Assembly (NCBI GenBank): GCA_964551375.1
Contig: CAZKBG010000001.1
Location: 747,329 to 779,328 of the forward strand
Reading direction: 5' to 3'
From: an uncultured archaeon
Lineage (GTDB): Archaea > Iainarchaeota > Iainarchaeia > Iainarchaeales > JAAZKV01
DNA length: 32,000 nt
Below the pieces are notes generated by a model, which was not told the DNA's origin, made no database searches, and was given only the letters and a program-made list of their open reading frames with translations. Positions 1 to 19,559 of the stretch are shown piece after piece. A program made the translations under genes and the position numbers. Within the stretch, counting starts at the first letter, position 1, and every line of letters starts with the position of its first letter.

Positions 1-72
1 GTATAAAAAATGTTAAAAGTATAAAAAATGTTAAAAGTATAAAAAATGTTAAAAGTATAAAAAATGTTAAAA
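1..72. repeat. Perfect tandem repeat, 18-bp unit GTATAAAAAATGTTAAAA x4, cut by the window edge
   Basis: Read directly: the units at 1-18, 19-36, 37-54 and 55-72 are identical. The array may continue upstream of the window. Each unit contains a TATA-box-like TATAAAAAA. Confidence 0.95.
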
Positions 73-117
73 GCATTGGGAATAATTTTGCTCGGTAAGT
101 CTATTTGTTTTATTGAT

Positions 118-870
118 TTACAAAAACATTTTCAGCACTAAAACAAACAATACTCCAATAACAAGGGAGAAAATTGTTTTCTGATTAGTAATTCTCTGGC
201 AGGAAGCGGGGATTAATTCATCGCCTGAAATATAAATCATAACTCCTGCAGTAACTCCGCTGATTAATCCAATTGCCCAAAAAGGAATTAACTGATAAAG
301 ATAAAACGCAAATGCAAATCCGATTAAAGTAGGCAAAGCAGTAACTGATGAAACAAGAAATGCCTTCCACTTCTTTTTTGTCAAGGCATAATAAGGCGCG
401 GCAGTGGAAATTCCTTCAGGAATATGGTGAAGCGCCATTGCAAGCGCAACAGTGAGCGAAAGGCTGAAATTACTAAAAAATCCAATTGCAATCGCCATTC
501 CTTCAGGAAAGTTGTGAAAAAACATTCCCCCAATTAAATACACTGGGGTTTTTTTGCTAATCTTGCCCTGCTTAACATTTGAATCAATAAGTTTGAACTG
601 TTCGGTAATGTAAGGCACTGCGCTTTCAAGGATAAACATAAACCCCGCACCAACCGCAACTCCAATTGAGGCAATAACGATTCCAGACATTGCAATAGCG
701 GTCGGAATAAGCTCCAAAAATGAGATTGAAAGCATAACGCCTGCGGCAAACGCAAGCATGTTAAAGACAAAACTGTCTTTTGGCTTTTTTAAAACTCCAA
801 GAGCCGAGCCAAGTATCGGACCGACAACCGAAAGCACCAGAATTAATGTAATTTGGCCAAATTCCTGCAT
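118..870 (-). CDS. ZIP-family divalent metal transporter (ZupT-like)
   Basis: Multi-pass hydrophobic protein with ZIP signatures HNFPEGMAIA and HHIPEG. The ORF track starts at TTG 888; I prefer the in-frame ATG at 870 (MQEFGQ...). Confidence 0.85.
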   Translation of the reverse strand: MQEFGQITLILVLSVVGPILGSALGVLKKPKDSFVFNMLAFAAGVMLSISFLELIPTAIAMSGIVIASIGVAVGAGFMFILESAVPYITEQFKLIDSNVKQGKISKKTPVYLIGGMFFHNFPEGMAIAIGFFSNFSLSLTVALAMALHHIPEGISTAAPYYALTKKKWKAFLVSSVTALPTLIGFAFAFYLYQLIPFWAIGLISGVTAGVMIYISGDELIPASCQRITNQKTIFSLVIGVLFVLVLKMFL

Positions 871-971
871 ACCTAAACACTTTTTCAAAAGCTTATTAAA
901 GAATCCTTTATGGGAACGTTTTTAACCATAAATAAGTATAGTTTTCTTACTCTTTTAACGGGGGTTAGTCA

Positions 972-2057
972 ATGATATCAGCAAAAGAAGCTAAAATGGA
1001 CATAAAAGAATTTTTGAAAACCAAGGTTCCTGAAATAGAAAATGAAATAGAAAAATTCATCCCAAGAAAGCCCACAAAAAAATGGATTGAAAGCGCGCTT
1101 GGAAAAACAGTGTTTGAACTTGACTTAATCGCCTATGAAAAAGGAGTAAACGAGCCTATTTGGGAGCTTTTAGACCGAGGGGGAAAAAGATTTCGCCCGG
1201 TAATGACCTGCCTTGTTGCAGAAGCAGTTGGCGGAAAATACGAAGACGCGCTAAAACTTGCTCCAATGGTAGAAATAATTCACAACGGGACTTTAATGCA
1301 GGATGATGTGGAAGACGATTCGCAGGCAAGAAGAGGAAAACCCTGCACTCATAAAGTATACGGCGTAGACACAGCAGTAAACACAGGAACAATAATGTAC
1401 TTTTGGCCGATGGTAAAAATACTAACCGACGAGTACAAACTCGGCGACAAAAAAAGACTTCAAATTTATGACATATTCCTTCGCGAACTATTAAGAGTAT
1501 GTTCTGGGCAAGCATGGGATATAGCATGGCACCACGGAGGATTCACTCCAAACGAAGCAGAGTATCTAAACATGTGCCTAAGCAAAACTGGGGTTCTTAC
1601 AAGATTTGCGTGCCAGCTGGGGGCAATAAGCGGAGGAGCGACTAAGGAACAATTTGACGCTCTTGGAGACTTTGGGCAGATAGTTGGAGTAGGATTTCAA
1701 ATCCAAGATGATATACTTGAATTAACCGAAGATAAATTCAAAGAAGGGAAAGGAAGCATCGGCGGAGATATTCATGAAGGCAAGAGAACGCTCATAGTTA
1801 TTAGAACTATTGACAAAGCAAATGCAAAAGACAGAGCGCGCCTTGTGGAAATACTTGATTCCCACACGCTGGACCCAAAAGTAATACAAGAAGCGCTTGA
1901 CATCATAAACAAATACGATGGAATAGCATATGCAAAAAAAAGAGCGGAAGAATTAGTTCTTGACGCGTGGAAAAGAGCGGACAAGGTTCTAAAAGACAGC
2001 AACGCAAAATCTCTTTTGAAGAAATTTGCAGAGTTTTTAGTAGACAGAAAAATTTGA
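972..2057 (+). CDS. idsA: trans-prenyl diphosphate synthase (GGPP synthase-like)
   Basis: 361 aa. First Asp-rich motif is LMQDDVEDD followed by RRGKP; second Asp-rich motif is FQIQDDILE. A G-rich site (GGGGG) lies 9 nt upstream. Product chain length cannot be inferred. Confidence 0.85.
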   Translation: MISAKEAKMDIKEFLKTKVPEIENEIEKFIPRKPTKKWIESALGKTVFELDLIAYEKGVNEPIWELLDRGGKRFRPVMTCLVAEAVGGKYEDALKLAPMVEIIHNGTLMQDDVEDDSQARRGKPCTHKVYGVDTAVNTGTIMYFWPMVKILTDEYKLGDKKRLQIYDIFLRELLRVCSGQAWDIAWHHGGFTPNEAEYLNMCLSKTGVLTRFACQLGAISGGATKEQFDALGDFGQIVGVGFQIQDDILELTEDKFKEGKGSIGGDIHEGKRTLIVIRTIDKANAKDRARLVEILDSHTLDPKVIQEALDIINKYDGIAYAKKRAEELVLDAWKRADKVLKDSNAKSLLKKFAEFLVDRKI

Positions 2058-2090
2058 AATGAATTAAATTAATTATTTGGAGGGACAATT

Positions 2091-3149
2091 ATGGCTAAAG
2101 CAAAATTATCAGCAACTGAGAATCGAAAAAAAGAACACCTTGAGCTTTGCGCAAAAAAAGATGTCGGTTTTCACAATAAAACTACTCTTCTTGAAGCGGT
2201 AGAGCTTGACTACAAATGCCTCCCTGAAATAAGCATGAGCGAAGTGAACTTATCAACAGAATTTTTAGGAAAAAAATTCGCATTCCCTTTCATGGTGAGC
2301 GCAATGACGGGCGGAGCGCAGATAGCAAAAAAAGTAAATTTAGAAATTGCAGCAGCATGCCAGGAAATGGGGATAGGAATGGGCTTAGGAAGCATGAGAG
2401 CAATGCTCCAACAACCATCACTCGCAGAAACTTATTATGTTAGAGACGCAGCACCGGATATTTTTGTAGCAGGAAATATTGGCGCAGCTCAATTAAAGCA
2501 ATATAATCCAGACCAGTTAAATGAAGCCCTTGAAGCAGTGGGCGCAGATGCACTTGCAATACACATGAATGCCGCACAGGAAGCAGTTCAGCCAGAAGGA
2601 GACGCAGATTTTTCAGCGCTGATAGTAAAAGTCGCTGAATTTGCAAATGAAATTAATGTTCCAGTTTATGTAAAAGAAGTAGGGCACGGCGTATCATATG
2701 ACGTTGCATTTGCTTTGAAAGGAACAAACATACGCGCAATTGATGTTCAAGGAGCCGGCGGAACAAGCTGGACCGCAGTTGACGCGCTTCGCCACAAAGA
2801 AGGATTTGGATTGGCATTTAGAGAATTTGGAATACCCACCGCAGTATCAGTAATTGGAGTGAAATCAGCGCTCTACGGAACAGACAAAAAGATAATTGCT
2901 TCAGGCGGAATAAGAACCGGACTTGACGCAGTAAAAGCAATAGTTCTTGGCGCAAATATGACTGCCGCTGCGATGCCGGTGCTTCAAGCTCAGCAGAAAA
3001 AAGGAATTGAAGGAATAATGAATTACTTAAGCGGACTGCAGAGAGAAATGAATATAACTGCATTTTTGCTTGGTTGCAAGAATATTAAAGAACTTCATGA
3101 AGAGAAACCCCTGCTTTTGGGCAGATTAACTGAATGGCTAAAGCAATAA
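2091..3149 (+). CDS. fni: Type 2 (FMN-dependent) isopentenyl-diphosphate delta-isomerase
   Basis: 352 aa with the hallmark IDI2 motifs NRKKEHLEL, SAMTGG, AAQEAVQPEGD, VKEVGHG, QGAGGTSW and SGGIRTGLD. A GGAGGG ribosome-binding site lies upstream. Confidence 0.93.
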   Translation: MAKAKLSATENRKKEHLELCAKKDVGFHNKTTLLEAVELDYKCLPEISMSEVNLSTEFLGKKFAFPFMVSAMTGGAQIAKKVNLEIAAACQEMGIGMGLGSMRAMLQQPSLAETYYVRDAAPDIFVAGNIGAAQLKQYNPDQLNEALEAVGADALAIHMNAAQEAVQPEGDADFSALIVKVAEFANEINVPVYVKEVGHGVSYDVAFALKGTNIRAIDVQGAGGTSWTAVDALRHKEGFGLAFREFGIPTAVSVIGVKSALYGTDKKIIASGGIRTGLDAVKAIVLGANMTAAAMPVLQAQQKKGIEGIMNYLSGLQREMNITAFLLGCKNIKELHEEKPLLLGRLTEWLKQ

Positions 3150-3174
3150 ATACTAGTTTTGATGTGATGTTCTT

Positions 3175-4983
3175 ATGCAAATTGAACTAGGAAAAGTTAA
3201 ATCAAAGGGACAGGGGACAATAGAATACCTGGTTATCATTGCGGTAGTGATAGTAATAGCGCTTGTTGTAGTTGGAATTATTTCAGGAATTTTTGGGGAC
3301 AGCTCCGCGCAGGTTTTAAGCGGCGGCGAAGCCCTTGGAAACGTATCAAATTCAGCAGGAATTAATATTGTTGATTCAGTTTCAGATCCAAGCGGAAACG
3401 GATTAATCACGCTTCAGAATTTATCCCCTGACACAGTGACTATTTCACAAATCACCACTCCGGAGGGCGGGGGCGGGACATTTAATACAAATGTTACTCC
3501 GGGCGATTCAAGAACGTTTTCACTCAACGATCTTAATGCAAGCTGCTTATGCTCGGCAGGCGAAGTGAGAAAAATATGCAATTTTATTTTTTCAATTACA
3601 ACTGCGTCAGGACTTGAAAAACAAGAAACTGTTTCAGTAACAGTTGACTGCTCAACTCAAAATGTGAATCCAGGAGATAGGGTAATTCCACCTCTTGACT
3701 CAACCGCGCCACAAGTTGCGCTGTCATCTCCAAGCGGAACCATTTTGTACGCAAATCCAATAACATTCACTTACACTGCGACCGACAATACTGCAGTGTC
3801 CAGCTGTTCGCTTCTAATAAACGGGGCAGTTGCCCAAACTGATTCCACAGCTCCGTTTGGTTCATTTACGCAGAGCATGACTCTTGGAAAGTACAATTGG
3901 TCAGTGTCCTGCCAAGATGCAAGAGCAAACACTGCTGTTCCAACAGCGGTTGACTTTAATGTATTTACAGCATTTCCTGTAGATTACTTCTTTTACAAAA
4001 ATTCATGGCCTACTTCTTCAATGACCAAGATTTCTTCAACAACAGGCGCGCTGCTTGCAACATTAAGCACAATGGACGCCGACGCATATCACACATTTTA
4101 CTTAGACTCTGATAGAAATTATTTGTGGGTTCCGCACCAGCACGGAAGCGCGACTCCGCAAGTGCCAAATTTAATAAAGATTGATTCAATATCAACAACA
4201 AAAATAGGGCAGTATTCCTCCCCATGCCCAGACATTTATTCAGGAATAGTTGACGGAAGCGGAAATGTATACCTTGGCGGAGGATGGAATTCAAGAGTAA
4301 TTTGCAAATACGACACTTCAGGAACAAATGTTTCTAACTTTACTCCTGATGCAAATATTACCACAACACTCGGACTCACAATCGACTCAAGCAGCAATTT
4401 ATGGATTTACGACCTTGGCGCAAACGGAACTCCTGCAACAACTACTGTGCAAAAGCTTGATTCTTCAACAGGAACAAAAATCCTTGAATTTGAAACAGAC
4501 TGCAACGCAGCAACATTTGCAATTCCGCTTGACGCATTCAAATTTGATTCACTTGGGCAATTATGGCTTGCGTGCGAAACTCCATCAAAAACATATGTTT
4601 ACAGCTCAACAGGGACAAAGCTTTACGAGTTTAACTTTAAGACATTAAGAATAACTCCTGACCAGTTGGGCAAAGTGTACCTGCTTTCCTCAGATAGAAA
4701 CATAATGAAAGTGGACGCATCAAACTATGCTATTCTTTGGAATAATCCATTAAGTTATGCTGATACAGTGACTCATTTCTTCATACAGCCGACTGAAGAC
4801 AAGGGACAGCTAATTGTCGGAAGACAGAATGCAAGCGGTTACATATCAACTTACGATACTAACACAGGGCTTAATGTGAACAACTGGACAAGCGGAAGCA
4901 CTCAAACAACGGGCTCAATAGCCGCACAAAGCCCTGATCCAAACGGATTCTACCACTGGATGCTTTATTCAGGAAAAAAATAA
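3175..4983 (+). CDS. Class III signal-peptide (archaeal pilin-like) protein with large extracellular Ig-like / beta-propeller-like region
   Basis: The N-terminus is MQIELGKVKSKG|QGTIEYLVIIAVVIVIALVV, i.e. a basic leader, G/Q cleavage context, an invariant E and a hydrophobic helix. An Ig-like segment follows (DSTAPQVALSSP...TATDNTAV). After it come repeated blade-like segments (YLWV, NVYLGGGW, NLWIYD, QLWLAC, KVYLLS). It starts 25 nt after fni. Confidence 0.75.
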   Translation: MQIELGKVKSKGQGTIEYLVIIAVVIVIALVVVGIISGIFGDSSAQVLSGGEALGNVSNSAGINIVDSVSDPSGNGLITLQNLSPDTVTISQITTPEGGGGTFNTNVTPGDSRTFSLNDLNASCLCSAGEVRKICNFIFSITTASGLEKQETVSVTVDCSTQNVNPGDRVIPPLDSTAPQVALSSPSGTILYANPITFTYTATDNTAVSSCSLLINGAVAQTDSTAPFGSFTQSMTLGKYNWSVSCQDARANTAVPTAVDFNVFTAFPVDYFFYKNSWPTSSMTKISSTTGALLATLSTMDADAYHTFYLDSDRNYLWVPHQHGSATPQVPNLIKIDSISTTKIGQYSSPCPDIYSGIVDGSGNVYLGGGWNSRVICKYDTSGTNVSNFTPDANITTTLGLTIDSSSNLWIYDLGANGTPATTTVQKLDSSTGTKILEFETDCNAATFAIPLDAFKFDSLGQLWLACETPSKTYVYSSTGTKLYEFNFKTLRITPDQLGKVYLLSSDRNIMKVDASNYAILWNNPLSYADTVTHFFIQPTEDKGQLIVGRQNASGYISTYDTNTGLNVNNWTSGSTQTTGSIAAQSPDPNGFYHWMLYSGKK

Positions 4984-4990
4984 AACCAGC

Positions 4991-5036
4991 TCGACAATTG
5001 ACGAAGGTCGTTTCGTTTTCTGGATAGGTTTTTATA
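4991..5036 (+). promoter_or_regulatory. Candidate promoter plus upstream operator, copy 1: CAATTGACGA-N15-CTGGATAGGTTTTTATA
   Basis: Near-identical to 9233-9278. The TTTTTATA box at 5029-5036 lies ~125 nt upstream of the gltD-like start. Confidence 0.55.
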
Positions 5037-5159
5037 CTTGTTTTCCCCTAAATTTCGTCTGCCTTTGGTGAGCGGCATTAGCTTAACCTTAGGGCATATG
5101 GGGATTTGAAAAAGTTTAGTAAAAGATAAAGATTTTGGGCAGAAAAATGGTGTTATTAG

Positions 5160-6509
5160 ATGAAAGTTCCTTTACTACCTATAGAAGAAAGAAAGACTAC
5201 TTTTAAGGAAGTTGAAACCGGCTTTACAAAAGAACAGGCATTAGCCGAAGCAGCACGATGTCTCCAATGCCCTGTTCCATCCTGCGTAAAAGGGTGCCCT
5301 GCTGGAGTAAATATTCCTGGATTTATTAAAGCATTTAAAGAGGGAGACATAATCAAAGCAGTTACAATAATTAGAGAAAGAAACTTTTTTCCAAGCATTT
5401 GCGGCAGGATTTGCCAGCATGAAAGACAATGCGAAGGAAACTGCATATTAGCAAAATCAAAAGACGGGCCTGTGACAATAGGCGGAATTGAAAGATTCAT
5501 CGGAGACAATACGCCCTATCCAGCAAGGCACAATTTAGTAGGAAAACACGTTGCAGTAGTAGGCTCTGGGCCAAGCGGACTCGCAGTAGCAGCATACTTA
5601 TCAGTAATTGGAATTCACGTAACAGTTCTTGAAGGGACAAACACATTTGGCGGAGTAATAAAATACGGCGTTCCAGAATTTCGACTCCCAAAAGACATAG
5701 TTGCAAGAGAAATATCAGGGCTGCACGATTTGGGAATTGATTTTGAGCCAAACGCAAAGATAAATGAAGAATCCCTTGAACAGCTTTCAAAAAAATATGA
5801 CGCGGTTTTTATCGGGACAGGCGTTGGAAGATCAAAAGTTCTTGATGTTCCTGGCTCGGGGCTGAAAAACATAATGAGCGCAATGAAATTTTTGGTAAAT
5901 TTAAATCAGAGCGGGCTGACAATGATTTCTCCAGGAGAAAAAGTTGTAGTAATCGGTTCAGGGTATGTGGGAATAGATGCAGCAAGAAGCGGAGTAAGAC
6001 TTGGCGGAGACATAACCTGCTTAACAGTTGAAACTGAAGAAAAATTAAAAGAAAGAATTTCAATCAAAGACTTTGAAGAATCAAAAGAAGAAGGAGTAAA
6101 GTTTATTTTCGGAGTAAAGGTAAAAGAATTTTTGGGGACTGAAAAAGTGGAAAAAGTTGTTTATGAAAACCATGTTCGCGGAGAACTTGAAGCATCAAAA
6201 GTAGTTTTTGCAATCGGACAGGAGCACGATGATGACGATTCATTAAAAGCTCCGCTAAGAACAAACAAAACAGGATGCATTGATGTTAATGAAAACAACC
6301 AGACAATCATTTCAAATGTATTTGCGGCAGGCGACTGCGTTCACGGGCCAAAAACAGTAATACAAGCGGTTGATTCAGGAAGAAAATCAGCCCAGTCAAT
6401 CATTAGGTTCCTAGACAAAAGAATTGCGAACGAAGCAATGGGGATAAAAAACGTTGACGAGCCTGAGAAAGTTATTCCAAAAGTCGACACTACGAATAAA
6501 GATATATAA
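5160..6509 (+). CDS. GltD/NfnB/SudA-family Fe-S flavoprotein pyridine-nucleotide oxidoreductase (glutamate synthase small-subunit-like)
   Basis: 449 aa. N-terminal Cys clusters are CLQCPVPSCVKGCPAG and CGRICQHERQCEGNC. Two dinucleotide-binding motifs follow: VAVVGSGPSGLA and VVVIGSGYVGID. GGTG lies upstream of the ATG. Confidence 0.8.
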   Translation: MKVPLLPIEERKTTFKEVETGFTKEQALAEAARCLQCPVPSCVKGCPAGVNIPGFIKAFKEGDIIKAVTIIRERNFFPSICGRICQHERQCEGNCILAKSKDGPVTIGGIERFIGDNTPYPARHNLVGKHVAVVGSGPSGLAVAAYLSVIGIHVTVLEGTNTFGGVIKYGVPEFRLPKDIVAREISGLHDLGIDFEPNAKINEESLEQLSKKYDAVFIGTGVGRSKVLDVPGSGLKNIMSAMKFLVNLNQSGLTMISPGEKVVVIGSGYVGIDAARSGVRLGGDITCLTVETEEKLKERISIKDFEESKEEGVKFIFGVKVKEFLGTEKVEKVVYENHVRGELEASKVVFAIGQEHDDDDSLKAPLRTNKTGCIDVNENNQTIISNVFAAGDCVHGPKTVIQAVDSGRKSAQSIIRFLDKRIANEAMGIKNVDEPEKVIPKVDTTNKDI

Positions 6510-6552
6510 TTTAATGATTTAATTAAATTAATTTTAATTTGGCGGTGAAATT

Positions 6553-7833
6553 ATGAATAAAGAAGCATTCAAAGATTTTTATAAAAAAAGCGTTAAAGAA
6601 AGACAGGAAATAATTTCACGCGAATTTAATCTGACTGATTCTGAAAAAGCACTTCTCACAAAAGAAGGCCCGCTTCCTTTTGAAACAGCAAACAGAATGA
6701 TTGAGAATGTAATAGGGACATTTCCTCTCCCGCTAGGACTAGCAATGAATTTTACAATTGACGGCAAAGAATATGTAGTTCCATTTGTTCTTGAAGAGCC
6801 AAGCGTAGTGGCTGCCGCAAGCAACGCCGCAAAATTATCTTCAGGATTTCGCACAATAGTTGACGAGCCTGTGATGATAGGGCAGATACAGCTTGTGAAA
6901 TGCAAAAATGCTAAAAGCGGACTTGAAAAAATACTTGCAAAGAAAAAAGAGCTTCTTGATGACTTAAAAATGATTGACTCAATTTTAGTGAAATTCGGCG
7001 GAGGACCGCGCGACTTAATCGGAGAGGTAATTAAAACTCCCCGAGGGGAAATGATAGCACTCCAGCTTCTTGTTGACGTGCGAGACGCAATGGGCGCAAA
7101 TGCAATAAACACAATGGCTGAAAAAATTACGCCAAAACTTGAAGAGCTCAGCGGAGGAGAAGTAAGGCTTAGAATTATTTCAAATCTTGCAGTTCATAGA
7201 AAAGCAAAAGCCACAACTACTTGGACAAGAAAATCCCTTGAAGAAAGCTCAAAAGGGGAAATGAAAGGCGAAGAAATAATTGAAAGAATACTTGACGCAT
7301 ACGAATTCGCATCAGCAACACAATTTCGAAGCGCGACACACAACAAAGGAATAATGAACGGAATAGACTCGCTGACAATTGCAACGGGAAATGACTTTAG
7401 AGCAGTAGAAGCAGGTGCGCACAGCTATGCTGCATACAATCACCCTTATGCCCCTCTTACAAAATATTACAAAGACAAAAACGGCGACTTAGTTGGAGAA
7501 ATAGAAATGCCAATGGTGCTTGCAACAATCGGGGGGACAATGAAATCAAACCCTTTAGCACAGCTTTCACTAAAAATACTTGGCGTAAAATCCTCAAAAG
7601 AACTTGCGAGCGTAGGCGCGGCAGTGGGACTTGCGCAAAACTTAGCAGCGCTAAGAGCACTTGCGACAACAGGAATACAAGCAGGGCACATGAAACTTCA
7701 TTCAAAAAACTTAGCCGTTCAAGCAGGTGCAAAAGGAAGCGAAATAGACATAGTTGCTGCGCGAATGGTTGAAGCAAAAGAAGTTACTCAGACAAATGCT
7801 GAAAAAATACTTGCAGAAATAAGAAAGAAATAA
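6553..7833 (+). CDS. hmgA: HMG-CoA reductase, class II (Pseudomonas mevalonii type)
   Basis: 426 aa. Matches class II HMGR along its length by eye: ENVIGTFPLPLG, EEPSVVAAAS, VDVRDAMGANAINTM, ATHNKGIMNGID, ATGNDFRAVEAGAH, GLAQNLAALRALATTGIQAGHMKLH. No N-terminal membrane domain. A GGCGGTGA ribosome-binding site is present. Confidence 0.92.
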   Translation: MNKEAFKDFYKKSVKERQEIISREFNLTDSEKALLTKEGPLPFETANRMIENVIGTFPLPLGLAMNFTIDGKEYVVPFVLEEPSVVAAASNAAKLSSGFRTIVDEPVMIGQIQLVKCKNAKSGLEKILAKKKELLDDLKMIDSILVKFGGGPRDLIGEVIKTPRGEMIALQLLVDVRDAMGANAINTMAEKITPKLEELSGGEVRLRIISNLAVHRKAKATTTWTRKSLEESSKGEMKGEEIIERILDAYEFASATQFRSATHNKGIMNGIDSLTIATGNDFRAVEAGAHSYAAYNHPYAPLTKYYKDKNGDLVGEIEMPMVLATIGGTMKSNPLAQLSLKILGVKSSKELASVGAAVGLAQNLAALRALATTGIQAGHMKLHSKNLAVQAGAKGSEIDIVAARMVEAKEVTQTNAEKILAEIRKK

Positions 7834-7847
7834 TTGGTTTGGCAGTT

Positions 7848-7858
7848 CTGTTTTTTTT
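7848..7858 (+). terminator. Oligo-T tract (T8) after hmgA, archaeal-type terminator candidate
   Basis: CTGTTTTTTTT lies 15-25 nt after the hmgA stop, at the convergent junction with the minus-strand ZIP gene and overlapping its stop codon. Confidence 0.4.
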
Positions 7859-8597
7859 ATTCTAACGCAAGCATTGCAAACATTATTGCTACTCCAATTA
7901 CAATACAAATGAATTGGATTAACGCGTCTTTTTTTGAAAATCTTACATGTAGTTGAGGCAAAAGATCAGTTCCCGCAAGGTAAAGGAATCCGCCAATAGT
8001 AAATGCAATTAAGTAAGGGGTAAATTCCGCAGTTGAAGAAATTACAAGCGCAAAACCTGCTCCGATAAAAGCAGTAAGCGAAATTAAAAAATTATACAAA
8101 AGCGCTTTTTTCTGGGTAAATCCGCTTTTTAATAGAACCCCAAAATCAGCAATCTCCTGCGGAACTTCATGAAGCAAAATTGCTATTGCTGTCGCAACAC
8201 CAACAGCGGGACTTGCAATAAATGCTCCTGCAAGAATTAAACCGTCAATAAAATTATGCATAGCATCTCCAGCGAGAGCAACATATCCAAAAGAAGGCGT
8301 CTCGCAGACATTGCTATGCTCAACATGATGGCAGTGGTGCCAGTGAATAAATTTTTCAAGAACGAAAAATGCAAGCATTCCAACAAGAATAGTTAAGGAT
8401 ACTTCAAGCGATAATCCATTTTTGCTAAGTTCAGGCAGAAGATGGATAAAAACATCTCCTAAAAGCGCCCCTATTGCAAAAGCAACCATTGCCTCAAGAA
8501 AATGCTCAAGCTTTTTGTGATTGATGCTAAGGGTAAAAACGCCGATTAAAGAAGCAAGTGAAATAACTAATAAGGAAATAAATAATTCAAAAAACAT
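7857..8597 (-). CDS. ZIP-family divalent metal transporter with His-rich loop
   Basis: 246 aa, multi-pass. ZIP signature HEVPQEIADFGVL, a His/Cys-rich loop HWHHCHHVEH, and HNFIDG. ATG start at 8597. Confidence 0.85.
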   Translation of the reverse strand: MFFELFISLLVISLASLIGVFTLSINHKKLEHFLEAMVAFAIGALLGDVFIHLLPELSKNGLSLEVSLTILVGMLAFFVLEKFIHWHHCHHVEHSNVCETPSFGYVALAGDAMHNFIDGLILAGAFIASPAVGVATAIAILLHEVPQEIADFGVLLKSGFTQKKALLYNFLISLTAFIGAGFALVISSTAEFTPYLIAFTIGGFLYLAGTDLLPQLHVRFSKKDALIQFICIVIGVAIMFAMLALE

Positions 8598-8654
8598 TTA
8601 ACACACCAAAACTAACTTTTTGCTTTGCAGCATTACAGCAAGTATTTTTCCAAA

Positions 8655-8736
8655 GTTAATAATTTTAAACCTATTTGTTAATAACATTTGTAGTTTACGC
8701 GGGCTAAGTTATTAAGTCAAATTTAGCTGATTTGAC
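8655..8736. promoter_or_regulatory. Candidate operator sites in the ZIP / nikR divergent intergenic region
   Basis: GTTAATAA occurs at 8655 and 8677, a 22-bp (two-turn) spacing. The second copy is part of the palindrome GTTAATAAC. A perfect 7-bp inverted repeat GTCAAAT-N7-ATTTGAC lies at 8716-8736. GCTGATTT is directly repeated at 8725 and 8737. Confidence 0.3.
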
Positions 8737-8795
8737 TGCTGATTTAGAAGATATTAAAACAGGCAAAAATAAAAAAAGGGTTTTTGGTGATTTTT

Positions 8796-9173
8796 ATGGC
8801 TGAAGTAGTAAGTTTTTCAATGCCCGGCGACACAGCTGATGAAATTGATGCCCTTCAAAAAACTCTTGCGCTTAAAGGAAGAAGCGAATTAGTAAGAGCG
8901 GCTCTTCGCTCGCTTGAAAATGAAACAAAAGAACACTCAAAACTGAAAGGAAAAGTAAACGCAGTGCTTGTAGTATCCCATGAACATGACGACAGCCTTG
9001 AAGAAGTAATCCACCATAACGATGCGCTTGTAAAAACCCACATGCACCAGCATGTCGGCAAAAAATGCGTTGAAATATTTTTACTTGAAGGGAGCGCTGA
9101 ACAGATAAGATTACTCTATAACGCGCTTGCAAAGAACAAGCACGTTCTTGGGACGAAGTTGGTTGTGATTTGA
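8796..9173 (+). CDS. nikR: NikR-family metal-responsive ribbon-helix-helix repressor
   Basis: N-terminal RHH segment is VSFSMPGDTADEIDALQKTLALKGRSELVRAALRSL. The C-terminal metal-binding domain has the H-x-H-x5-C pattern HMHQHVGKKCVEIFLLEG and an upstream HH. This parallels the E. coli NikR high-affinity Ni site. The ATG at 8796 is preceded by GGTGA; the ORF-track TTG at 8784 is less likely. Confidence 0.8.
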   Translation: MAEVVSFSMPGDTADEIDALQKTLALKGRSELVRAALRSLENETKEHSKLKGKVNAVLVVSHEHDDSLEEVIHHNDALVKTHMHQHVGKKCVEIFLLEGSAEQIRLLYNALAKNKHVLGTKLVVI

Positions 9174-9232
9174 GATTAATTCATATTATATTTGTTCAAT
9201 TTTGGATAATTTTTACTAAACATAAATCCTTA

Positions 9233-9278
9233 CGTCAATTGACGATTTGCTTTACGTCTTACTGGAAAGGTTTTTATA
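9233..9278 (+). promoter_or_regulatory. Candidate promoter plus upstream operator, copy 2: CGTCAATTGACG palindrome-N17-CTGGAAAGGTTTTTATA
   Basis: Perfect 12-bp palindrome CGTCAATTGACG at 9233-9244. The TTTTTATA box at 9271-9278 lies ~80 nt upstream of the HMG-CoA synthase start. Near-identical to 4991-5036. Confidence 0.55.
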
Positions 9279-9302
9279 GTCCTGTGATTAGTTAATGTTT
9301 AT

Positions 9303-9335
9303 GCTTAAAGCAACACAATCTAATTGTGCTTAAGC
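9303..9335 (+). other. Stem-loop in the predicted 5' leader of the HMG-CoA synthase operon
   Basis: GCTTAA(9303-08)/TTAAGC(9330-35) and CACAAT(9314-19)/ATTGTG(9323-28) pair around a 3-nt loop with an internal bulge. The base of the stem sits ~25 nt downstream of the TATA box, near the expected transcription start. Confidence 0.35.
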
Positions 9336-9358
9336 GACTTTAAACAAAGGTTGATTGT

Positions 9359-10399
9359 ATGGCAGGAATAATAGGGTGGGGAAGTTACATCCCAAAATAC
9401 AGAATAAAAGCAGAAACAATAGCAGAAGTGCAGAACGCCGATGCTGACTCAATAAAAGCAGGATTAGGACTTACTGAAAAAAGTGTTCCTGGCAAAGACG
9501 AAGACACAGCAACAATCTCAGTAGCTGCGGCAAGAGATGCGCTAAAAAGAACAGAAATCAACCGAAAAGAAATAGGCGCAGTATACATTGGAAGCGAAAG
9601 CCACCCTTATGCAGTAAAGCCGACCGCTTCAATAGTTGGCGAAGCGCTTGATATTGGAAACACTTACATGGCAGTAGACACTGAATTTGCATGCAAAGCA
9701 GGAAGCGCAACAATACAAATGAATGCGGGATTAGTAAATTCAGGAATGATAAAATACGGACTAAGCATCGGAGCAGACACCAGCCAAGCAGAACCAGGAA
9801 ACGCGCTTGAATACAGCGCAGCAGCAGGCGGAGCAGCGTTCATAATCGGTCCTGACAAAGAATCAGTAGCAATACTTGAACACACTTGCTCTTACACTAC
9901 CGACACTCCTGATTTTTGGAGACGCTCAATGCAGCCATACCCATCACACGCAGGAAGATTCACAGGAGAGCCAGCCTACTTTAAGCACGTAACAGCAGCA
10001 ACAAAAATGATACTTGAAAAAAGCAAACTTGCGATGAAGGATTTTAAGTTTGTAGTATTTCACATGCCAAATGGAAAATTTCCTCTAAGAGTAGCAAAAA
10101 CTTTTGGAGTGACAAAAGAGCAACTTGAAGCAGGACTTGTGGTAACAAAAATAGGAAACACATACTCTGGCTCATCAATTTTGGGACTTGCCAGCGTGCT
10201 TGACATAGCAAAACCAAATGACAGAATTTTAGTAACTTCATACGGAAGCGGAAGCGGAAGCGACGCATTTATTTTCAAAGTAACAGACAAAATTACAAAA
10301 GCCCAAGGAAAAGCAAGAAAAGTAAATGACTACATAGCGCGAAAAGAATATTTAGGATACGCGCAGTATCTAAAACACATGGAGGGCATACACGGTTAG
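9359..10399 (+). CDS. hmgB: HMG-CoA synthase (archaeal type)
   Basis: 346 aa. GIIGWGSYIPKYRI N-terminus, catalytic-Cys context TEFACKAGSATIQ, FHMPNGKFP and GNTYSGSS. AAGGTTGA lies upstream. Confidence 0.92.
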   Translation: MAGIIGWGSYIPKYRIKAETIAEVQNADADSIKAGLGLTEKSVPGKDEDTATISVAAARDALKRTEINRKEIGAVYIGSESHPYAVKPTASIVGEALDIGNTYMAVDTEFACKAGSATIQMNAGLVNSGMIKYGLSIGADTSQAEPGNALEYSAAAGGAAFIIGPDKESVAILEHTCSYTTDTPDFWRRSMQPYPSHAGRFTGEPAYFKHVTAATKMILEKSKLAMKDFKFVVFHMPNGKFPLRVAKTFGVTKEQLEAGLVVTKIGNTYSGSSILGLASVLDIAKPNDRILVTSYGSGSGSDAFIFKVTDKITKAQGKARKVNDYIARKEYLGYAQYLKHMEGIHG

Positions 10400-10408
10400 T
10401 GATTAGAT

Positions 10409-11173
10409 ATGGCTAAACGCTACATGACTCCGCACAAACTTGGCTTTGCAAAAGCTGCTGCAGAAGCAGTGGTAAAGCAGAGAAAAAAAAGCCGAAAAGA
10501 AATTGCAATGGCTCCATGGACAACAATAAAAGGCGCAGGAATAGAACTTTGGAGAGAAAGATTCTGGTTCCACCCGTTTCGCTCAATCGGAATAATAGTA
10601 AGCATTCCGCAAAAAATGCTTTTAAAAATCGCATCAGAAAGAGCAAAAGTAAGAATGGCAAATGTAAATGTTGCCGCAATGGTCAGGGAAGAAATGGAAA
10701 GAGACGCTGGATTCAAAGCAACAGTGCAAACTGCAGTAAAAGACCACAAATGGCTTTATGTTGACTGGAAAGGAAGAATTGTGCAGACAATAAATTCTCC
10801 AATAAAAGAAAGCGAGGAAAATTTTGTTCTCAAAGACAGAGGACATGCCAAAAGGGCGAATATGAAAGAATTTAGCGGAAAAGCAACAATAAAATATGTT
10901 AACGCAAGTACACAGCCGAGAAAATCAAGCGACCCTGCAGGGCCAAGAGCAATAATGATAGGAACAAGAGGAAAAAATTTACACGTATCAAATTTGAGAG
11001 CAGGAAAAGAAGAAGTGATAGTAAGAACAGCTATAGAAAGCCAAACAATGACGCCGTTTGCGTCAAGACCAAACACAGTATTATTAAAATTAAAAATGAA
11101 AGACGGAAGCACAAAGAAATTTGTTGTTAATAAAGATGAAGCAAAAGGAGTAGTAAGAAGATTGGGGTTGTGA
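10409..11173 (+). CDS. Hypothetical basic protein (254 aa), no family recognised
   Basis: Starts 10 nt after the hmgB stop. Codon usage looks like its neighbours, it is K/R-rich, and it has one short hydrophobic stretch (SIGIIVSIP). The antisense ORFs here look like shadows. Confidence 0.6.
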   Translation: MAKRYMTPHKLGFAKAAAEAVVKQRKKSRKEIAMAPWTTIKGAGIELWRERFWFHPFRSIGIIVSIPQKMLLKIASERAKVRMANVNVAAMVREEMERDAGFKATVQTAVKDHKWLYVDWKGRIVQTINSPIKESEENFVLKDRGHAKRANMKEFSGKATIKYVNASTQPRKSSDPAGPRAIMIGTRGKNLHVSNLRAGKEEVIVRTAIESQTMTPFASRPNTVLLKLKMKDGSTKKFVVNKDEAKGVVRRLGL

Positions 11174-11232
11174 GTAAAATAAAATTAGTTTTTATTTTAT
11201 AGATTAAGTAAATTTATTTTAAAGGTGTACAT

Positions 11233-12387
11233 ATGAAAGTAGGCGTAATAGGAATTGGAATAACAAAGTTCGGAGAAATTTGGGACGCAAGCTTAAGAGA
11301 ACTCTTGCTTGACGCACAGCTTCGCTCATTAAATGATGCAAAAATAGAAGCAAAACAAATAGACGCAATGTACACCGGAAACATGGCAGCAGGACAACTA
11401 AGCGGACAACTGCATGTAGGCGCAATGGCGACAGAAAATCTAAATTTAGAAATACCTTCAATAAGAGTAGAAGCAGCATGCGCAAGCGGCTCGCTCGCAC
11501 TAAGACAAGGACTTCACGCAATAGAAGCAGGCGAAGCGGATATTGTAATGGTGAATGGAGTAGAAAAAATGACTGATGTTTCAACAGAACAAGTAACAAC
11601 AGCATTAATGGGCGCAGGCGACGAAGAGCTTGAAGGATTCAACGGACTAACATTTCCAGGATTATATGCATTGCTTGCAAACGCATATATGCACGAATAC
11701 GGATTAACAAGAGAAGTATTAGCAGAAGTGTCAGTAAAAAACCACTTCCACGGCGCAAGAAACTCATACGCGCAATTTCAAAATGAAATAACAGTAGACA
11801 CCGTAATGGACTCAACAATGGTAGCAGATCCTTTAACTTTATTTGACTGCTCTCCAATAACAGACGGCGCGGCAAGCGTAATACTCGCAAGCGAAAAAAC
11901 AGCTAAAAAAATGGGCGCAGAAGTATATGTAACAGGCTCAGGACTCGCAACTGACACATTATCACTTGCAAGAAGAAAATCACTCCTTGAAATAAAAGCA
12001 GGAAAATTAGCCGCTGGCTTTGCATACAAGCAAGCTGGAATCACCGCAAAGGATATTGATTTTGCAGAAGTGCATGATTGTTTTTCAATAGCAGAAATTT
12101 ACGCAGTGGAAGCCCTGGGACTTGCAAAGCAGGGACAAGGATGGAAATTATACAAAGAAAGACAAACTTACTGCGATGCAGACAAGCCGGTAAATACAAG
12201 CGGCGGACTAAAAGCATGCGGACACCCAGTTGCAGCAACTGGAATAAAACAGGCAGTGGAAGCAGTAATGCAATTACGCGGACAAGGCGCAAAAAGACAA
12301 GTAAAGGACGCTGAAATTGGAGTAACACACAATGTGGGCGGAAGCGGAGCAACTGCAGCAGTGCACGTATTTAGAAGAATGAAATAA
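11233..12387 (+). CDS. Acetyl-CoA C-acetyltransferase (archaeal thiolase)
   Basis: 384 aa. Active-site Cys in VEAACASGSLAL, plus HDCFSIAE, NTSGGLKACGHPVAATG and HNVGGSG. An AAAGGTG ribosome-binding site is present. Confidence 0.92.
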   Translation: MKVGVIGIGITKFGEIWDASLRELLLDAQLRSLNDAKIEAKQIDAMYTGNMAAGQLSGQLHVGAMATENLNLEIPSIRVEAACASGSLALRQGLHAIEAGEADIVMVNGVEKMTDVSTEQVTTALMGAGDEELEGFNGLTFPGLYALLANAYMHEYGLTREVLAEVSVKNHFHGARNSYAQFQNEITVDTVMDSTMVADPLTLFDCSPITDGAASVILASEKTAKKMGAEVYVTGSGLATDTLSLARRKSLLEIKAGKLAAGFAYKQAGITAKDIDFAEVHDCFSIAEIYAVEALGLAKQGQGWKLYKERQTYCDADKPVNTSGGLKACGHPVAATGIKQAVEAVMQLRGQGAKRQVKDAEIGVTHNVGGSGATAAVHVFRRMK

Positions 12388-12425
12388 AAAAGCAAAAATA
12401 GGAATTATATTTGAGCGTGATAAAA

Positions 12426-12653
12426 ATGGCGGAAAAGAAAGGATTTTTTGGAAAACTATTGGGGGGAAAATCAAATTCAGGATTTGGATCAACAGATTCA
12501 GAACCAGTAAGAAGAATTGAACCCAGAATAGTTGAAGAAAGAAGAGAAGAAGACGAACCAGGACAGCTTTGGAAAAAAGCCAAGAAATGGAGAGAAGACC
12601 AGGCACTCAACGAGCCTCTTGTAAAAAGAAACCAGTACAAGAAAAAATACTGA
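12426..12653 (+). CDS. Small charged, probably disordered protein (75 aa), hypothetical
   Basis: The ATG at 12426 is preceded by GTGAT. The sequence is G/K/E/R-rich and low in complexity. It sits between the thiolase and DUF35 genes. Its coding status is uncertain. Confidence 0.4.
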   Translation: MAEKKGFFGKLLGGKSNSGFGSTDSEPVRRIEPRIVEERREEDEPGQLWKKAKKWREDQALNEPLVKRNQYKKKY

Positions 12654-12702
12654 CACAACAAATTAGGGAAGTTTTATTGGAAAATTAGCGGATGGTGTGA
12701 AA

Positions 12703-13101
12703 ATGTTTAGAGAAAGCCCGATAATAAGGTGGAGACACTACAACGACAGATATAAACTGAAAGGAAGCAAATGCACAAAATGCGGAGCAACCTACTTTGA
12801 AAAAAAAGGAGTATGCACCTGCAGCAACATGGACTTTATTGAAATGGACTTCTCAGGAATTGGAAAAATTGCAGCATTCACACAAATCCACGGCGGGCCG
12901 GAAGCATTTGAAAACAAAACACCATACTGCGTGGCAGTAATAGACTTAGCTGAAGGCGCAAGAATTGAAGCGCAGGTAGTAGACGCAAAGTACGAAAATC
13001 TAAAAATAGGAATGGAAGTTGAAGCGCAATTTAGAAAATTCTATGCAAGCGGCGAAAAAGGAGTAATCCACTACGGAACAAAATTTGTTCCAAAATTCTA
13101 A
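12703..13101 (+). CDS. DUF35 zinc-ribbon/OB-fold protein (scaffold of the archaeal thiolase/HMG-CoA synthase complex)
   Basis: Zinc ribbon CTKCGATYFEKKGVCTCS, followed by an OB-like segment (PYCVAVIDLAEGARIEAQVVD...GMEVEAQFRK). The ATG at 12703 is preceded by GGTG. Confidence 0.85.
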   Translation: MFRESPIIRWRHYNDRYKLKGSKCTKCGATYFEKKGVCTCSNMDFIEMDFSGIGKIAAFTQIHGGPEAFENKTPYCVAVIDLAEGARIEAQVVDAKYENLKIGMEVEAQFRKFYASGEKGVIHYGTKFVPKF

Positions 13102-13138
13102 CGCTCTAACCTGTGCCGATTTTGGCAAAAAGAGAGCG
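13102..13138 (+). other. Two-tier stem-loop immediately after the DUF35 stop
   Basis: CGCTCT(13102-07)/AGAGCG(13133-38) enclose TGCC(13114-17)/GGCA(13124-27). No T-tract follows. The next ATG is 9 nt downstream. Confidence 0.35.
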
Positions 13139-13146
13139 GGTAAATT

Positions 13147-13914
13147 ATGAAAATGCCAAAAAAGAATGAGCTGTTAGTTCTGCCTGAAGACCACGCGGCT
13201 CATTTTGCAAAAAAATGGTTAAGATTTGCAAGAATGAAAGGAAAACCGGTTGCAAAAAGAAAACTTGCTGAATTAAAAGAAAAAATGAAACGCTTCGCAA
13301 GACTTGCTCCCATGGTTGAAAAAGCTTACTGGGAAGGATACAGAAAACAGAATCCAACAAGATACCAAGCAATCGCATTATCAGAATCCGTTCTTGAAAA
13401 AGTACTGGCAGGCGAATCAAAAGCAAAAATAAAACAAGCACATTACTTGATTGCGCATAATTTTTCACTGCAAACCTTTCGAGAAAAATACGGAGAAAGC
13501 TTAATTGCACCCGCAGAAAGAATTGCAACTATAACATTTAAGATGCAGGAAGAATTACCAGGATATCTAAAAAGAAACTGGAACAAACTCAGCGAGTTTG
13601 AGCAAAAACAATTGAAAGCCACAAAAGAAGCTCTTCCAGGAATAAATCTAAGCCTTCTTGCGCACGATATTGAAGGAAAGGCGATGTCGATTCCGGTTCA
13701 TTTACTGACTCAAGCGGAAAGAGTTCACAAAGAAGCAATCACAAGCTTAATTGGCGAATCAAGATTTAATAAATTTAACAAAACAATGAACAAAGCAGTG
13801 GATATGCTGATAGAAAAAGAACATGAAGAGGAAAAAAAGAGAGGTTTAGCAAAAGGCGGAGCAAGAAAATTAACAAAAAAAGAAATTGAAGCAAGAAGAA
13901 AAAGAATTGTTTAA
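13147..13914 (+). CDS. Hypothetical K/E/R-rich, apparently all-helical protein (255 aa), no family recognised
   Basis: ATG start with neighbour-like codon usage. It lies between the DUF35 gene and the first mevalonate kinase paralog. The C-terminal tail is highly basic (KKEIEARRKRIV). Confidence 0.6.
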   Translation: MKMPKKNELLVLPEDHAAHFAKKWLRFARMKGKPVAKRKLAELKEKMKRFARLAPMVEKAYWEGYRKQNPTRYQAIALSESVLEKVLAGESKAKIKQAHYLIAHNFSLQTFREKYGESLIAPAERIATITFKMQEELPGYLKRNWNKLSEFEQKQLKATKEALPGINLSLLAHDIEGKAMSIPVHLLTQAERVHKEAITSLIGESRFNKFNKTMNKAVDMLIEKEHEEEKKRGLAKGGARKLTKKEIEARRKRIV

Positions 13915-13933
13915 ATTTACGGATGGTTATAAC

Positions 13934-14878
13934 ATGCAAGAAGCAAAAGGAAGAGGATACGGAAAAGTAATACTGTTTGGAGAATACTTTTCTGTTTACG
14001 GCACTCCGGGAGCGGCGGCAGGCATTGACAAATATGTTGAAGTAAAAGCAACCAAACACAAAGACGCAGAAGATGTCATAATTGACGACCAGTTGTTCTT
14101 TAAAGAAAAAGTTTCGCTAAAAGAAAATCCCGAACACATAAAAATCAAAGGGCTTAAGGCAATGTTTAAAGATGAAATAGAAATTTCACTAAAAGGATTC
14201 AAATTAACTTACAGCGGGAACCTTCCCCACGGAGAAGGAATGGGATTTGGCTCGGCGCTTGGAGCCGCAACAGCAAGAGCAGTAAGCTCAATGTTTGACA
14301 TGAAACTAAAAGATGAAAAAATAAACGAGCTTGCGCAAAAATGGGACTCTGCGACAAACGGAACTCCCAGCGAAATTGACGACGCATGCGCAACATACGA
14401 CTCGCTTGTATGGTTTGAGAAAAACAAAGAAGACGACAAAGTCAAGGCAAGGCCGTTTAAATCAGGCGGAGCGCTCTTTTTAATAATCGGCGAAACAGGA
14501 ATAAAAAAACAAACACCAGAAGCTCTTGCGGAAGTAAAGAAGTGGAAAGAAGAAAACAAATCTGAATTTGAAAAAATACTTTCAGAAGCAAAAAAACTTT
14601 CAGGAAAAGCAAAGCTTGCGCTAAAATTCGGCGAAATGGCTGAAATAGGAAAACTAATGAATCAAAATCAGGAACTTTTAAAAAAAATAGGAGCATCTCT
14701 TCCTGAACAGGAGGCATTGATAAAAATTGCGCTTGAAAAAGGAGCATACGGCGCAAAAATTACCGGAACAGGATCTGGAAATATAATTGCGCTTTGCGAA
14801 AACGAGGCAATGCAGGACAAAATAATTGCGACAATCGAACAGAGAGGGTACAAAGCAATTAAAACAAGAATTCATTAA
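13934..14878 (+). CDS. GHMP kinase, divergent mevalonate-kinase paralog
   Basis: MVK-type N-terminus GKVILFGEYFSVYG, with Y replacing the usual H. GHMP motif 2 is PHGEGMGFGSALGAATA, motif 3 is KITGTGSGN, and the substrate loop is PSEIDDACATYDS. I prefer the ATG at 13934 over the ORF-track TTG at 13886, which overlaps the previous gene. Confidence 0.8.
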   Translation: MQEAKGRGYGKVILFGEYFSVYGTPGAAAGIDKYVEVKATKHKDAEDVIIDDQLFFKEKVSLKENPEHIKIKGLKAMFKDEIEISLKGFKLTYSGNLPHGEGMGFGSALGAATARAVSSMFDMKLKDEKINELAQKWDSATNGTPSEIDDACATYDSLVWFEKNKEDDKVKARPFKSGGALFLIIGETGIKKQTPEALAEVKKWKEENKSEFEKILSEAKKLSGKAKLALKFGEMAEIGKLMNQNQELLKKIGASLPEQEALIKIALEKGAYGAKITGTGSGNIIALCENEAMQDKIIATIEQRGYKAIKTRIH

Positions 14879-14906
14879 ATTAGGGCAAATATTTGGGGAT
14901 GAAAAA

Positions 14907-15836: not shown

Positions 15837-15913
15837 TTTTTTGAAAATTTGCAGAACTTAGGAAGTAATTAAATCAAAAGTATTTGTAATAAGATATTAT
15901 TGGCTGTGAAAAA

Positions 15914-16477
15914 ATGGAAAAAAGAATAATTCTTGGAGTCAGCGGGGCATCAGGAGTAAATTATGCCCTTACTTTGCTAAAAGAATTGAAAAAAAGCGGA
16001 GTAGAGGTTCACTTAATCATGAGCGAGTGGGCTGAAGTGGTATTGGCTCTTGAAACAGGAAAAAAAGTAGCTGAAATGAAAAAACTTGCATTCAAAACAT
16101 ACTCAAACAAAGATATGGCAGCAAGCGTATCCTCAAGCTCATTTTTAGTGGATGGAATGATAGTGCTTCCAGCTTCAGTAAAAACAGTATCTGAAATAGT
16201 TCATGCGCACACTTCAAACTTAATCACACGATGCGCGGATAATATGCTGAAAACAAAAAAAACACTTGTGATTGGATTTAGAGAAACCCCAGTCAGTCCA
16301 CCGACACTTGAAAATCTCTATAAACTTTCGCTCTACGGGGCAATTATATTTCCATTAAGTCCGGGGTTTTACAATAAGCCAAAAACAATTAAAGACATAG
16401 AGGGATTTATTGTAGGCAAAGCAATGGATTTATTAGGTGTTAGAAATAATACTTATAAAAGATGGGAGAAGGCATAA
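15914..16477 (+). CDS. ubiX: UbiX-family flavin prenyltransferase (prFMN synthase)
   Basis: 187 aa. RIILGVSGASGVNYA flavoprotein N-terminus, SEWA, and typical UbiX/Pad1 size and layout. It lies directly upstream of a UbiD-family gene. Confidence 0.85.
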   Translation: MEKRIILGVSGASGVNYALTLLKELKKSGVEVHLIMSEWAEVVLALETGKKVAEMKKLAFKTYSNKDMAASVSSSSFLVDGMIVLPASVKTVSEIVHAHTSNLITRCADNMLKTKKTLVIGFRETPVSPPTLENLYKLSLYGAIIFPLSPGFYNKPKTIKDIEGFIVGKAMDLLGVRNNTYKRWEKA

Positions 16478-16504
16478 AAGCGCTTAAAACAAAAAGGTGA
16501 TTAT

Positions 16505-17779: not shown

Positions 17780-17841
17780 ATAAGTTAAGATATGAAGGTA
17801 ATTGAATATAATAAGTTTAGTAACCAAAAGATTGTGATTTT

Positions 17842-19029: not shown

Positions 19030-19082
19030 AAAAAGCGGTAAATTGAGTAATGAAATGATATTTTGAAAAAAATGTGGTGTTT

Positions 19083-19475: not shown

Positions 19476-19559
19476 CAATATAGGTCTAAAAAATCGATAT
19501 ATTTTCTTATTCAAGATACTTTTAAATAAAGAAAAAGTGCTCATTTTGCAAGTGGTTTA

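Follow-up and report, generated by a model that had tools for sequence, protein, structure and literature searches.

A rare, conserved promoter element before two early mevalonate-pathway units in an Iainarchaeota genome is a candidate two-site operator

The window analysed here, a 32,000-nucleotide stretch of DNA (G000:C1:747329-779328), belongs to a DPANN archaeon of the Iainarchaeota/Diapherotrites whose assembly, G000, comprises 1.09 Mb in 10 contigs at 38% G+C and is 93% complete. Early mevalonate-pathway genes lie here in two forward-strand units separated by a ZIP transporter gene and a NikR-like gene (Table 1). The first unit pairs a gltD-like Fe-S flavoprotein, matched by the Pfam families Fer4_20 and Pyr_redox_2, with an HMG-CoA reductase (HMG-CoA_red, E 7e-101), and the second opens with the HMG-CoA synthase gene in a same-strand gene run that extends to ~19475. 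The order idsA-fni-gltD-hmgA-hmgS-thiolase-DUF35 is conserved between positions 1-20000 of the window and the corresponding loci of relatives (L096-L114), and orphan ORFs that differ by lineage, coding for pilin-like, 265-aa, 282-aa and 254-aa proteins, sit between almost every gene pair. The relatives are MAGs of 62-94% completeness, the genus sample comprises 22 genomes, and the genome-wide gene statistics (722 upstream regions) rest on a rough ORF caller. Several short contigs of the host assembly (C3, C7 and C10, and also C5, C8 and C9) have 45-59% G+C versus 38% in the two large contigs, and these short G+C-rich contigs are probably foreign to the genome bin.

Table 1. Positions of the element copies, leader features and neighbouring genes in the window
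Feature	Position	Strand	Basis or details
Copy 1 distal box, near-palindrome TCGACAATTGACGA	4991..5004	+	CG steps 4992-4993, 5002-5003
Copy 1 proximal box TTCGTTT	5012..5018	+	CG at 5014-5015
Copy 1 core promoter	5020..5036	+	BRE-like CTGGATAGG (5020-5028), TATA box TTTTTATA (5029-5036)
TGGTGAG, Shine-Dalgarno-like heptamer	5066..5072	+	Near predicted 5' end of first leader
First unit: gltD-like Fe-S flavoprotein 5160-6509, HMG-CoA reductase 6553-7833	5160..7833	+	Pfam
ZIP transporter	7857-8597	-	Pfam; between the two units
NikR-like gene	8784-9173	+	Pfam; between the two units
Copy 2 distal box ACGTCAATTGACGA	9232..9245	+	Perfect 12-bp palindrome 9233-9244
Copy 2 proximal box TACGTCT	9253..9259	+	CG at 9255-9256
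Copy 2 core promoter	9262..9278	+	BRE-like CTGGAAAGG (9262-9270), TATA box TTTTTATA (9271-9278)
Second-unit leader	9297..9345	+	ATGTTTAT at predicted start, hairpin 9303-9335, degenerate T-rich box
Second unit (start): HMG-CoA synthase 9359-10399, orphan ORF, thiolase, small ORF, DUF35/OB-fold protein	9359..13101	+	Pfam, gene calls

Each unit is preceded by one copy of an element of ~48 bp (4991-5036 and 9232-9278). An earlier annotation made from the letters alone, hereafter the sequence-only reading, had described two copies of ~46 bp, and both their positions and their spacing are confirmed by the sequence, the distance from CAATTG to CTGGA being 25 and 26 nt in the two copies. Both copies combine the decamer CAATTGACGA and, after 15 or 16 nt, the 17-mer CTGGAWAGGTTTTTATA (4995-5036 and 9236-9278), and the true unit begins 3-4 nt 5' of the decamer, at the first base of the distal boxes. 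The element consists of a 3' BRE/TATA part (AAAGG TTTTTATA; GGAWAGG TTTTTATA) and a specific 5' part, in which a 14-bp near-palindrome, aCGwCAATTGwCGt, whose centre lies ~35 bp ahead of that of the TATA box, is followed 22 bp downstream by a TTCGTYT box whose spacing to the BRE is fixed. In copy 1 the proximal box stands 22 bp beyond the first distal-box CG and 17 bp ahead of the TATA box, and the distal box is kept in all orthologous promoters.

This arrangement is rare. The two-block pattern CAATTGACGA/CTGGAWAGGTTTTTATA was absent from 100 dinucleotide-preserving shuffles of the window, and CTGGAWAGGTTTTTATA has two copies in the whole genome, both in the element. Searching the genome with the element profile returned two full matches only (E 1e-10 and 5e-9; next E 3.3), a profile search of the window with filters off recovered the same two, and no other palindrome of the genome scores as high as those of the two elements, copy 2 being the top one. 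By itself, CAATTGACGA has 12 genome copies, and 7 of the 10 outside the element fall inside called genes, where they correspond to Ile-Asp-Glu/Asp codons; the decamer alone therefore fails as a genome-wide marker. None of the weaker palindromes at 59997, 106318, 612348, 251016 and 573029 of the genome shows the box-to-TATA layout; a HicB-like gene follows one of them and a pilin-like gene another. The third-best genomic palindrome, ACGTCAACTGACGT at 59997, lies within a ~1-kb stretch (G000:C1:59807-60847) that yielded no convincing ORF and no Rfam match, with a TTTCGTCTGATTTTGAAAG stretch 60 nt beyond. Since single-segment ranking shows that other promoter pairs of the genome also have stretches of 17-28 nt in common, the case for the element rests on the two-block pattern and on its conservation rather than on one 17-mer.

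To separate what is ordinary in the element from what is specific, its 3' part can be compared with the promoters of the host. An expectation-maximisation motif search over the 722 upstream regions gave the genome promoter consensus AAAAAA[G/C][C/G]TTTWWAWA, in which the segment directly 5' of the TATA box is AAAAAA[G/C][C/G], as against the purine-rich BRE GGAWAGG of the element, and by the genome matrix the core promoters rank 93/722 (copy 1) and 13/722 (copy 2). Judged by this match, the 3' 17 bp is the organism's ordinary BRE/TATA core promoter, and the TATA box and BRE-like stretch proposed by the sequence-only reading fit the genome's own consensus. The element could on these grounds be taken for a generic strong promoter, its two copies alike only as two good promoters are and served by no dedicated factor, given that the AAAGGTTTTTATA part matches the genome-wide consensus with scores in the top 2-13%. 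However, the palindrome and the TTCG box are found neither in the other 185 well-scoring promoters nor elsewhere in the genome (a TTCG before the TATA box occurs in 1/187 promoters at -17 and in 1/187 at -18), both are invariant across species, and the motif, far from standing at many unrelated promoters, has the two full genome matches only, all of which makes a generic promoter extremely unlikely.

Conservation across the relatives follows the same division. The gltD-like protein is encoded in 18 further genus genomes at 62-92% identity, with the element upstream in every one. Sorted by downstream gene, the reductase-type copy is found in 22/22 genus genomes and the synthase-type copy in 17/22; the latter is truncated by contig ends in G004 and G014, G006 and G007 carry reductase and synthase in one fused unit with a single copy, and G001, G003 and G005 have a plain, operator-less promoter ahead of the synthase gene. 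At E <= 3.5e-10 a model built from sequence only (R1) matched 38 times across the 22 genus genomes, 1-2 per genome; after a gap, the next matches come at ~E 1e-5. The site alignment (A1; consensus nnACGTCAATTGnCGTAnnnnAnTTCGTCTTTTGGATAGGTTTTTATA) brings 31 sites together nearly gap-free, with 17 of its 54 columns invariant, among them three CG steps 10 and 12 bp apart, the run TTTTTA, the proximal-box columns T24, C26 and G27 and the BRE columns A36 and A38, and with a 7-nt spacer that is random and carries no information. Spacing to the TATA box is constant within 1 nt over the 31 sites, with the TTCGTYT box 15-16 bp ahead of it in every one, and dyad symmetry is preserved in 84-100% of the sites at five of the six position pairs, the sixth (columns 6/13) being free. 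At four-fold degenerate sites of the adjacent gene, identity to the host is ~50%, and 57% in the closest relative, where 36% is expected from composition; neutral sites are thus near saturation, so that the boxes are held by selection, and by this comparison the element is under strong selection. Family-wide, the element was found in 23/25 sampled genomes from four genera, and beyond the family the phylum-wide sample adds 5 genomes of three other families, no element being found in its other 121 genomes.

The symmetry of the distal box also bears on whether it acts as DNA or as RNA. A hairpin, serving as terminator of the upstream gene or as a structured RNA, might be suspected from copy 1, whose start lies 8 nt past the preceding gene's stop codon, and from the perfect 12-bp palindrome of copy 2. 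Perfect 12-bp palindromes are nonetheless confined to 4/31 sites, copy 2 included; the palindrome leaves no space for a loop, compensatory changes occur in 0/6 pairs, and pair 6/13 is non-complementary in 27/31 sites. Furthermore, being upstream of the TATA box, the palindrome falls outside the regulated transcript, and positions 4800-9500 of the window have no Rfam match at E <= 1, so that we regard a hairpin as vanishingly unlikely. In a palindrome without compensatory change it is the sequence that is conserved, as expected for protein recognition.

The two copies differ subtly and consistently. Synthase-type copies have TTCGTCT in common, and 9/13 of them have one extra nt in the spacer ahead of the BRE, giving a signature of TTCGTCT + 1 nt versus TTCGYTT-TTT in the reductase type. 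The sequence-only reading had allowed for a promoter duplication created when the ZIP/NikR module split an ancestral operon, which would reduce the element to a neutral remnant with no regulatory meaning. The module does separate the two units in the host genome, and the fused units of G006 and G007, with their one copy, would fit such a history. Four other relatives (G002, G008, G011 and G013), however, carry the synthase-type copy between reductase and synthase without ZIP/NikR there, and many relatives lack the module between these two genes, which indicates that in one sub-lineage it entered ahead of a promoter already in place; likeness is no greater between copies within a genome (0.68) than between genomes (0.67), as compared with 0.69 and 0.73 for orthologous copies, the boxes are invariant where the spacers are randomised, and each copy type retains its own signature. 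Both copies are, by these measures, old and show no sign of gene conversion, the proposed duplication by operon splitting is not upheld, and we consider a functionless remnant exceedingly improbable.

The same module raises the possibility that the neighbouring NikR-like repressor uses the element as its operator, which would tie the pathway to metal status, and the sequence-only reading had listed NikR among the candidate regulators. In the host, 59 nt separate the end of the NikR-like gene from copy 2; in 4/8 genomes (as in G015, G016 and G032) the gene immediately precedes the synthase-type copy, and in two more (G004 and G010) it is ~850 nt upstream. Against this, a NikR-like gene is present in only 8/22 genus genomes while all 22 carry the element, and it is not near copy 1. 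Known NikR half-site pairs do not resemble the box layout of the element. Likeness to NikR operators is hence limited to the gene beside copy 2, with phyletic distribution and layout both differing; we rejected NikR as the factor, and an operator of this kind is very unlikely.

Outside the two units of the host, the element also precedes other genes in relatives. Weaker R1 matches retain the palindrome and the TTCG box in the same order and spacing, and seven variant sites (G001, G002, G005, G007, G010, G018 and G031) precede the gamma-subunit gene of a pyruvate/2-oxoacid:ferredoxin oxidoreductase (POR), an assignment verified by Pfam for two of the seven genus POR loci. The host's own POR gamma gene (C1:788536) has no element site, nor does the idsA-fni promoter of the window. 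In a second genus of the family the element is upstream of the gltD-like gene (G034 and G111), and in family f9 it precedes HMG-CoA reductase in G026 and POR in G085. It also precedes a small membrane protein gene in family f24 (G045 and G089) and a threonine-dehydrogenase-like gene in G060, and a weak site stands ahead of an OPT transporter gene in G104; the small membrane protein and the OPT transporter have no obvious link to the pathway and count against the regulon reading. The search of the genome and its relatives thus finds a unit that is rare in the genome and recurs at linked genes in relatives, and the dedicated factor site envisaged by the sequence-only reading gains support from a palindromic part that is rare, conserved beyond neutral expectation and repeated at those genes.

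Two further groups of operator-like sequences turned up in relatives. Matches in L077-L079, L084 and L094 were rejected as false positives, being coding sequence (SSIDEDSFVVC...) at an intein-like junction; this operator-mimicking DNA is near-identical across species (G013, G011, G033, G031 and G089), encodes ..SSIDEDSFVVC LKGVW.., and marks a putative intein insertion point with a weak Pfam Intein_splicing match. In other families, at L149 (G080) and L152 (G085:C113), operator-like GGCAATTGGCGA..TTCGTCT and GTCAATTGACGA..TTCGTCAATTG are found directly 3' of tRNA genes.

Downstream of the core promoters, both leaders have features of their own. In most relatives the heptamer TGGTGAG keeps a constant distance to the TATA box, and in the short-leader relatives (L019, L108 and L110) it serves the gltD-like gene as ribosome-binding site; in the host it is followed by ~90 nt of sequence that is not conserved and by a second ribosome-binding site, GGTGTT, before the ATG is reached. 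The distance from the TATA box to the ATG of the gltD-like gene varies from 28 to 182 nt in relatives, and the short first leader looks ancestral; the intervening ~90 nt would make the long host leader derived. The leaders had been called unusually long for an archaeon: the distances hold as given for the host, but the length is variable among relatives and does not appear to be the original state. Synthase leaders (L022-L043) share a conserved start, (A/G)TGTTTAT, followed by a hairpin and, in most relatives, by TAGTTTTTTATT; the T-run of the host leader is degenerate (GACTTTAAAC). At this position 13 relatives have hairpins that are unrelated in sequence, with z of about -2 to -3 in most, as estimated from single-sequence folds, and the arrangement may represent either a second, proximal TATA box or a hairpin-plus-U-tract attenuator.

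As to the protein that might bind the element, no regulator gene recurs beside the sites in 20 loci. A dedicated TFB was rejected on finding a single TFB gene in the 93% complete genome, with two cyclin repeats in one 304-aa ORF. The host has two Lrp/AsnC genes, of which one (C1:621699-622169) is present in 99/101 order members, with identities of 33-89% that mostly fall at 50-70%; this order-wide distribution fits a conserved motif and does not discriminate. Its own promoter contains no element site and no CG box, and a similar-looking TTCG...CGAA repeat there was rejected as it is not kept even in the closest relative. Past its TATA box, the leader of this gene (G000:C1:622170-622337; L126-L144) has a conserved inverted repeat of its own, CCTAAG..CTTAG, and then TTTTC. 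The second Lrp/AsnC gene is not conserved in element-bearing genomes. Small basic ORFs of one family (..RFD.(K/R)YL..F..AYKKNPE.A..L..W.EF; ...KKNPEKA..LL.KW.EF) lie directly upstream of either promoter at L039, L041 and L089 (G001, G005 and G034), these 3 genomes being the only ones with the family near the promoters, and the family is absent from the host genome. In the closest relative (L083, G004:C59:3000-5519), a 254-aa ORF with its own TATA-like box is divergent from the copy-2 palindrome; it has no Pfam match and no homolog in the host genome. The element itself provides a defined 48-bp probe for fishing the regulator from a few dozen candidate proteins.

From the anatomy, the rarity, the conservation and the gene associations described above, we infer that a protein, and a single factor, would recognize the element, which very probably serves a mevalonate-pathway regulator as its docking site; that the specific part is a transcription-factor site is, to judge from its sequence, highly probable. 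We envisage its 5' ~30 bp as a two-site operator for one sequence-specific, dimeric candidate transcription factor, with the distal near-palindrome as the high-affinity site and a second, degenerate site, TTCGTYT..TTG, whose centre would lie 22 bp, or two helical turns, downstream and directly against the BRE. In line with this, the palindrome matrix gives its sole secondary peak at offset +22, in the TTCGTYT..TTG region, whose end is a few bp short of the BRE and where the proximal site is a half-site-level palindrome match only (mean -15 bits versus a background of -32, sd 8.6). The same operator, in fixed register, would stand before the gltD-like/HMG-CoA reductase unit and the HMG-CoA synthase/thiolase/DUF35 operon, and in relatives before POR; given its presence at all these genes, we propose that the factor co-regulates acetyl-CoA supply and the first committed mevalonate steps. 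The layout resembles that of Ptr2, LysM and Ss-LrpB (reviewed in PMC2995911) and thereby favours a dimeric activator of such type, in which the promoter-proximal dimer would aid TBP/TFB binding, as in Lrp-type archaeal activators. Taken as a whole, this composite promoter with a two-site operator for one dimeric, activator-type factor is evenly poised in our estimation between holding and failing.

The sign of regulation is the part most exposed to challenge, and repression by the same factor through the same operator is a serious rival, if a doubtful one in our estimation: cooperative binding from the strong distal palindrome to the weak proximal site would mask the BRE at its upstream edge and block TFB on an otherwise strong promoter. 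Both core promoters are near-consensus, synthase promoters without operator persist in G001, G003 and G005, and the proximal box comes within ~7 bp of the BRE. Near-consensus cores and operator-less promoters together suggest that the core may fire alone, which fits repression at least equally. On the other hand, the operator lies entirely upstream of the BRE/TATA and overlaps neither the TATA box nor the start site, and its strict +/-1 nt register to the TATA box suits a contact-dependent activator and exceeds what a steric block would need. Such an upstream position, moreover, goes with activation in studied archaeal systems (PMC2995911). On balance we lean slightly towards activation.

If the proposed two-site operator acts as an activator element, it would join POR as acetyl-CoA supply and the gltD/NfnB-like flavoprotein as reducing power to the pathway through phased sites, and a small-genome DPANN archaeon could turn the making of its own lipids on or off. 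The general view is that most DPANN archaea obtain lipids from hosts; the Iainarchaeota retain the pathway. A conserved element ahead of the first pathway steps and of acetyl-CoA production would imply that the cell regulates the synthesis of lipid precursors instead of running it constitutively. Literature searches found no transcription factor or cis-element for the archaeal mevalonate pathway, and we know of none ourselves. It is a tentative suggestion, and one we hold loosely, that the element represents the first pathway-level regulon for archaeal membrane-lipid precursors, in which one factor, possibly the order-wide Lrp/AsnC protein (G000:C1:621699-622169), couples POR, the gltD/NfnB-like flavoprotein and HMG-CoA synthase/reductase.

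Among known systems, the closest in design are the archaeal Lrp activators. For Ptr2 of Methanocaldococcus jannaschii and LysM and Ss-LrpB of Sulfolobus, the dimer site that recruits TBP lies a few bp upstream of the BRE in a highly constrained position, and further sites are located upstream at two or three helical turns (PMC2995911); the element shares the constrained site near the BRE and may share the second feature, its semi-palindromic distal box lying 22 bp, or about two helical turns, upstream of a proximal box that matches the palindrome at half-site level only. Lrp-like regulators of several archaea repeatedly target genes for 2-oxoacid:ferredoxin oxidoreductases (PMC2995911), and the element likewise stands at POR in 8 relatives. 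It differs from these activators in its mevalonate-pathway targets, which are new. To our knowledge, aCGwCAATTGwCGt, with its even symmetry and length of 12-14 bp, is unlike any published Lrp consensus. The position-dependent regulators TrmBL1/Tgr and SurR of the Thermococcales similarly act through one palindromic motif across the promoters of a pathway, and a site upstream of the BRE/TATA accompanies activation in TrmBL1 and SurR; the element promoters have no site downstream of the TATA box. The motifs and the pathways concerned, sugar metabolism for the one and hydrogen/sulfur metabolism for the other, are unrelated to those described here. Finally, SREBP/SRE in eukaryotes and FapR and FadR in bacteria each coordinate lipid-synthesis genes by one factor and a common cis-element; the logic is the same, as an analogy only and with no sequence or protein relationship. 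The motif and the proposed regulon are new, whereas the kind of system to which the element would belong is a known one.
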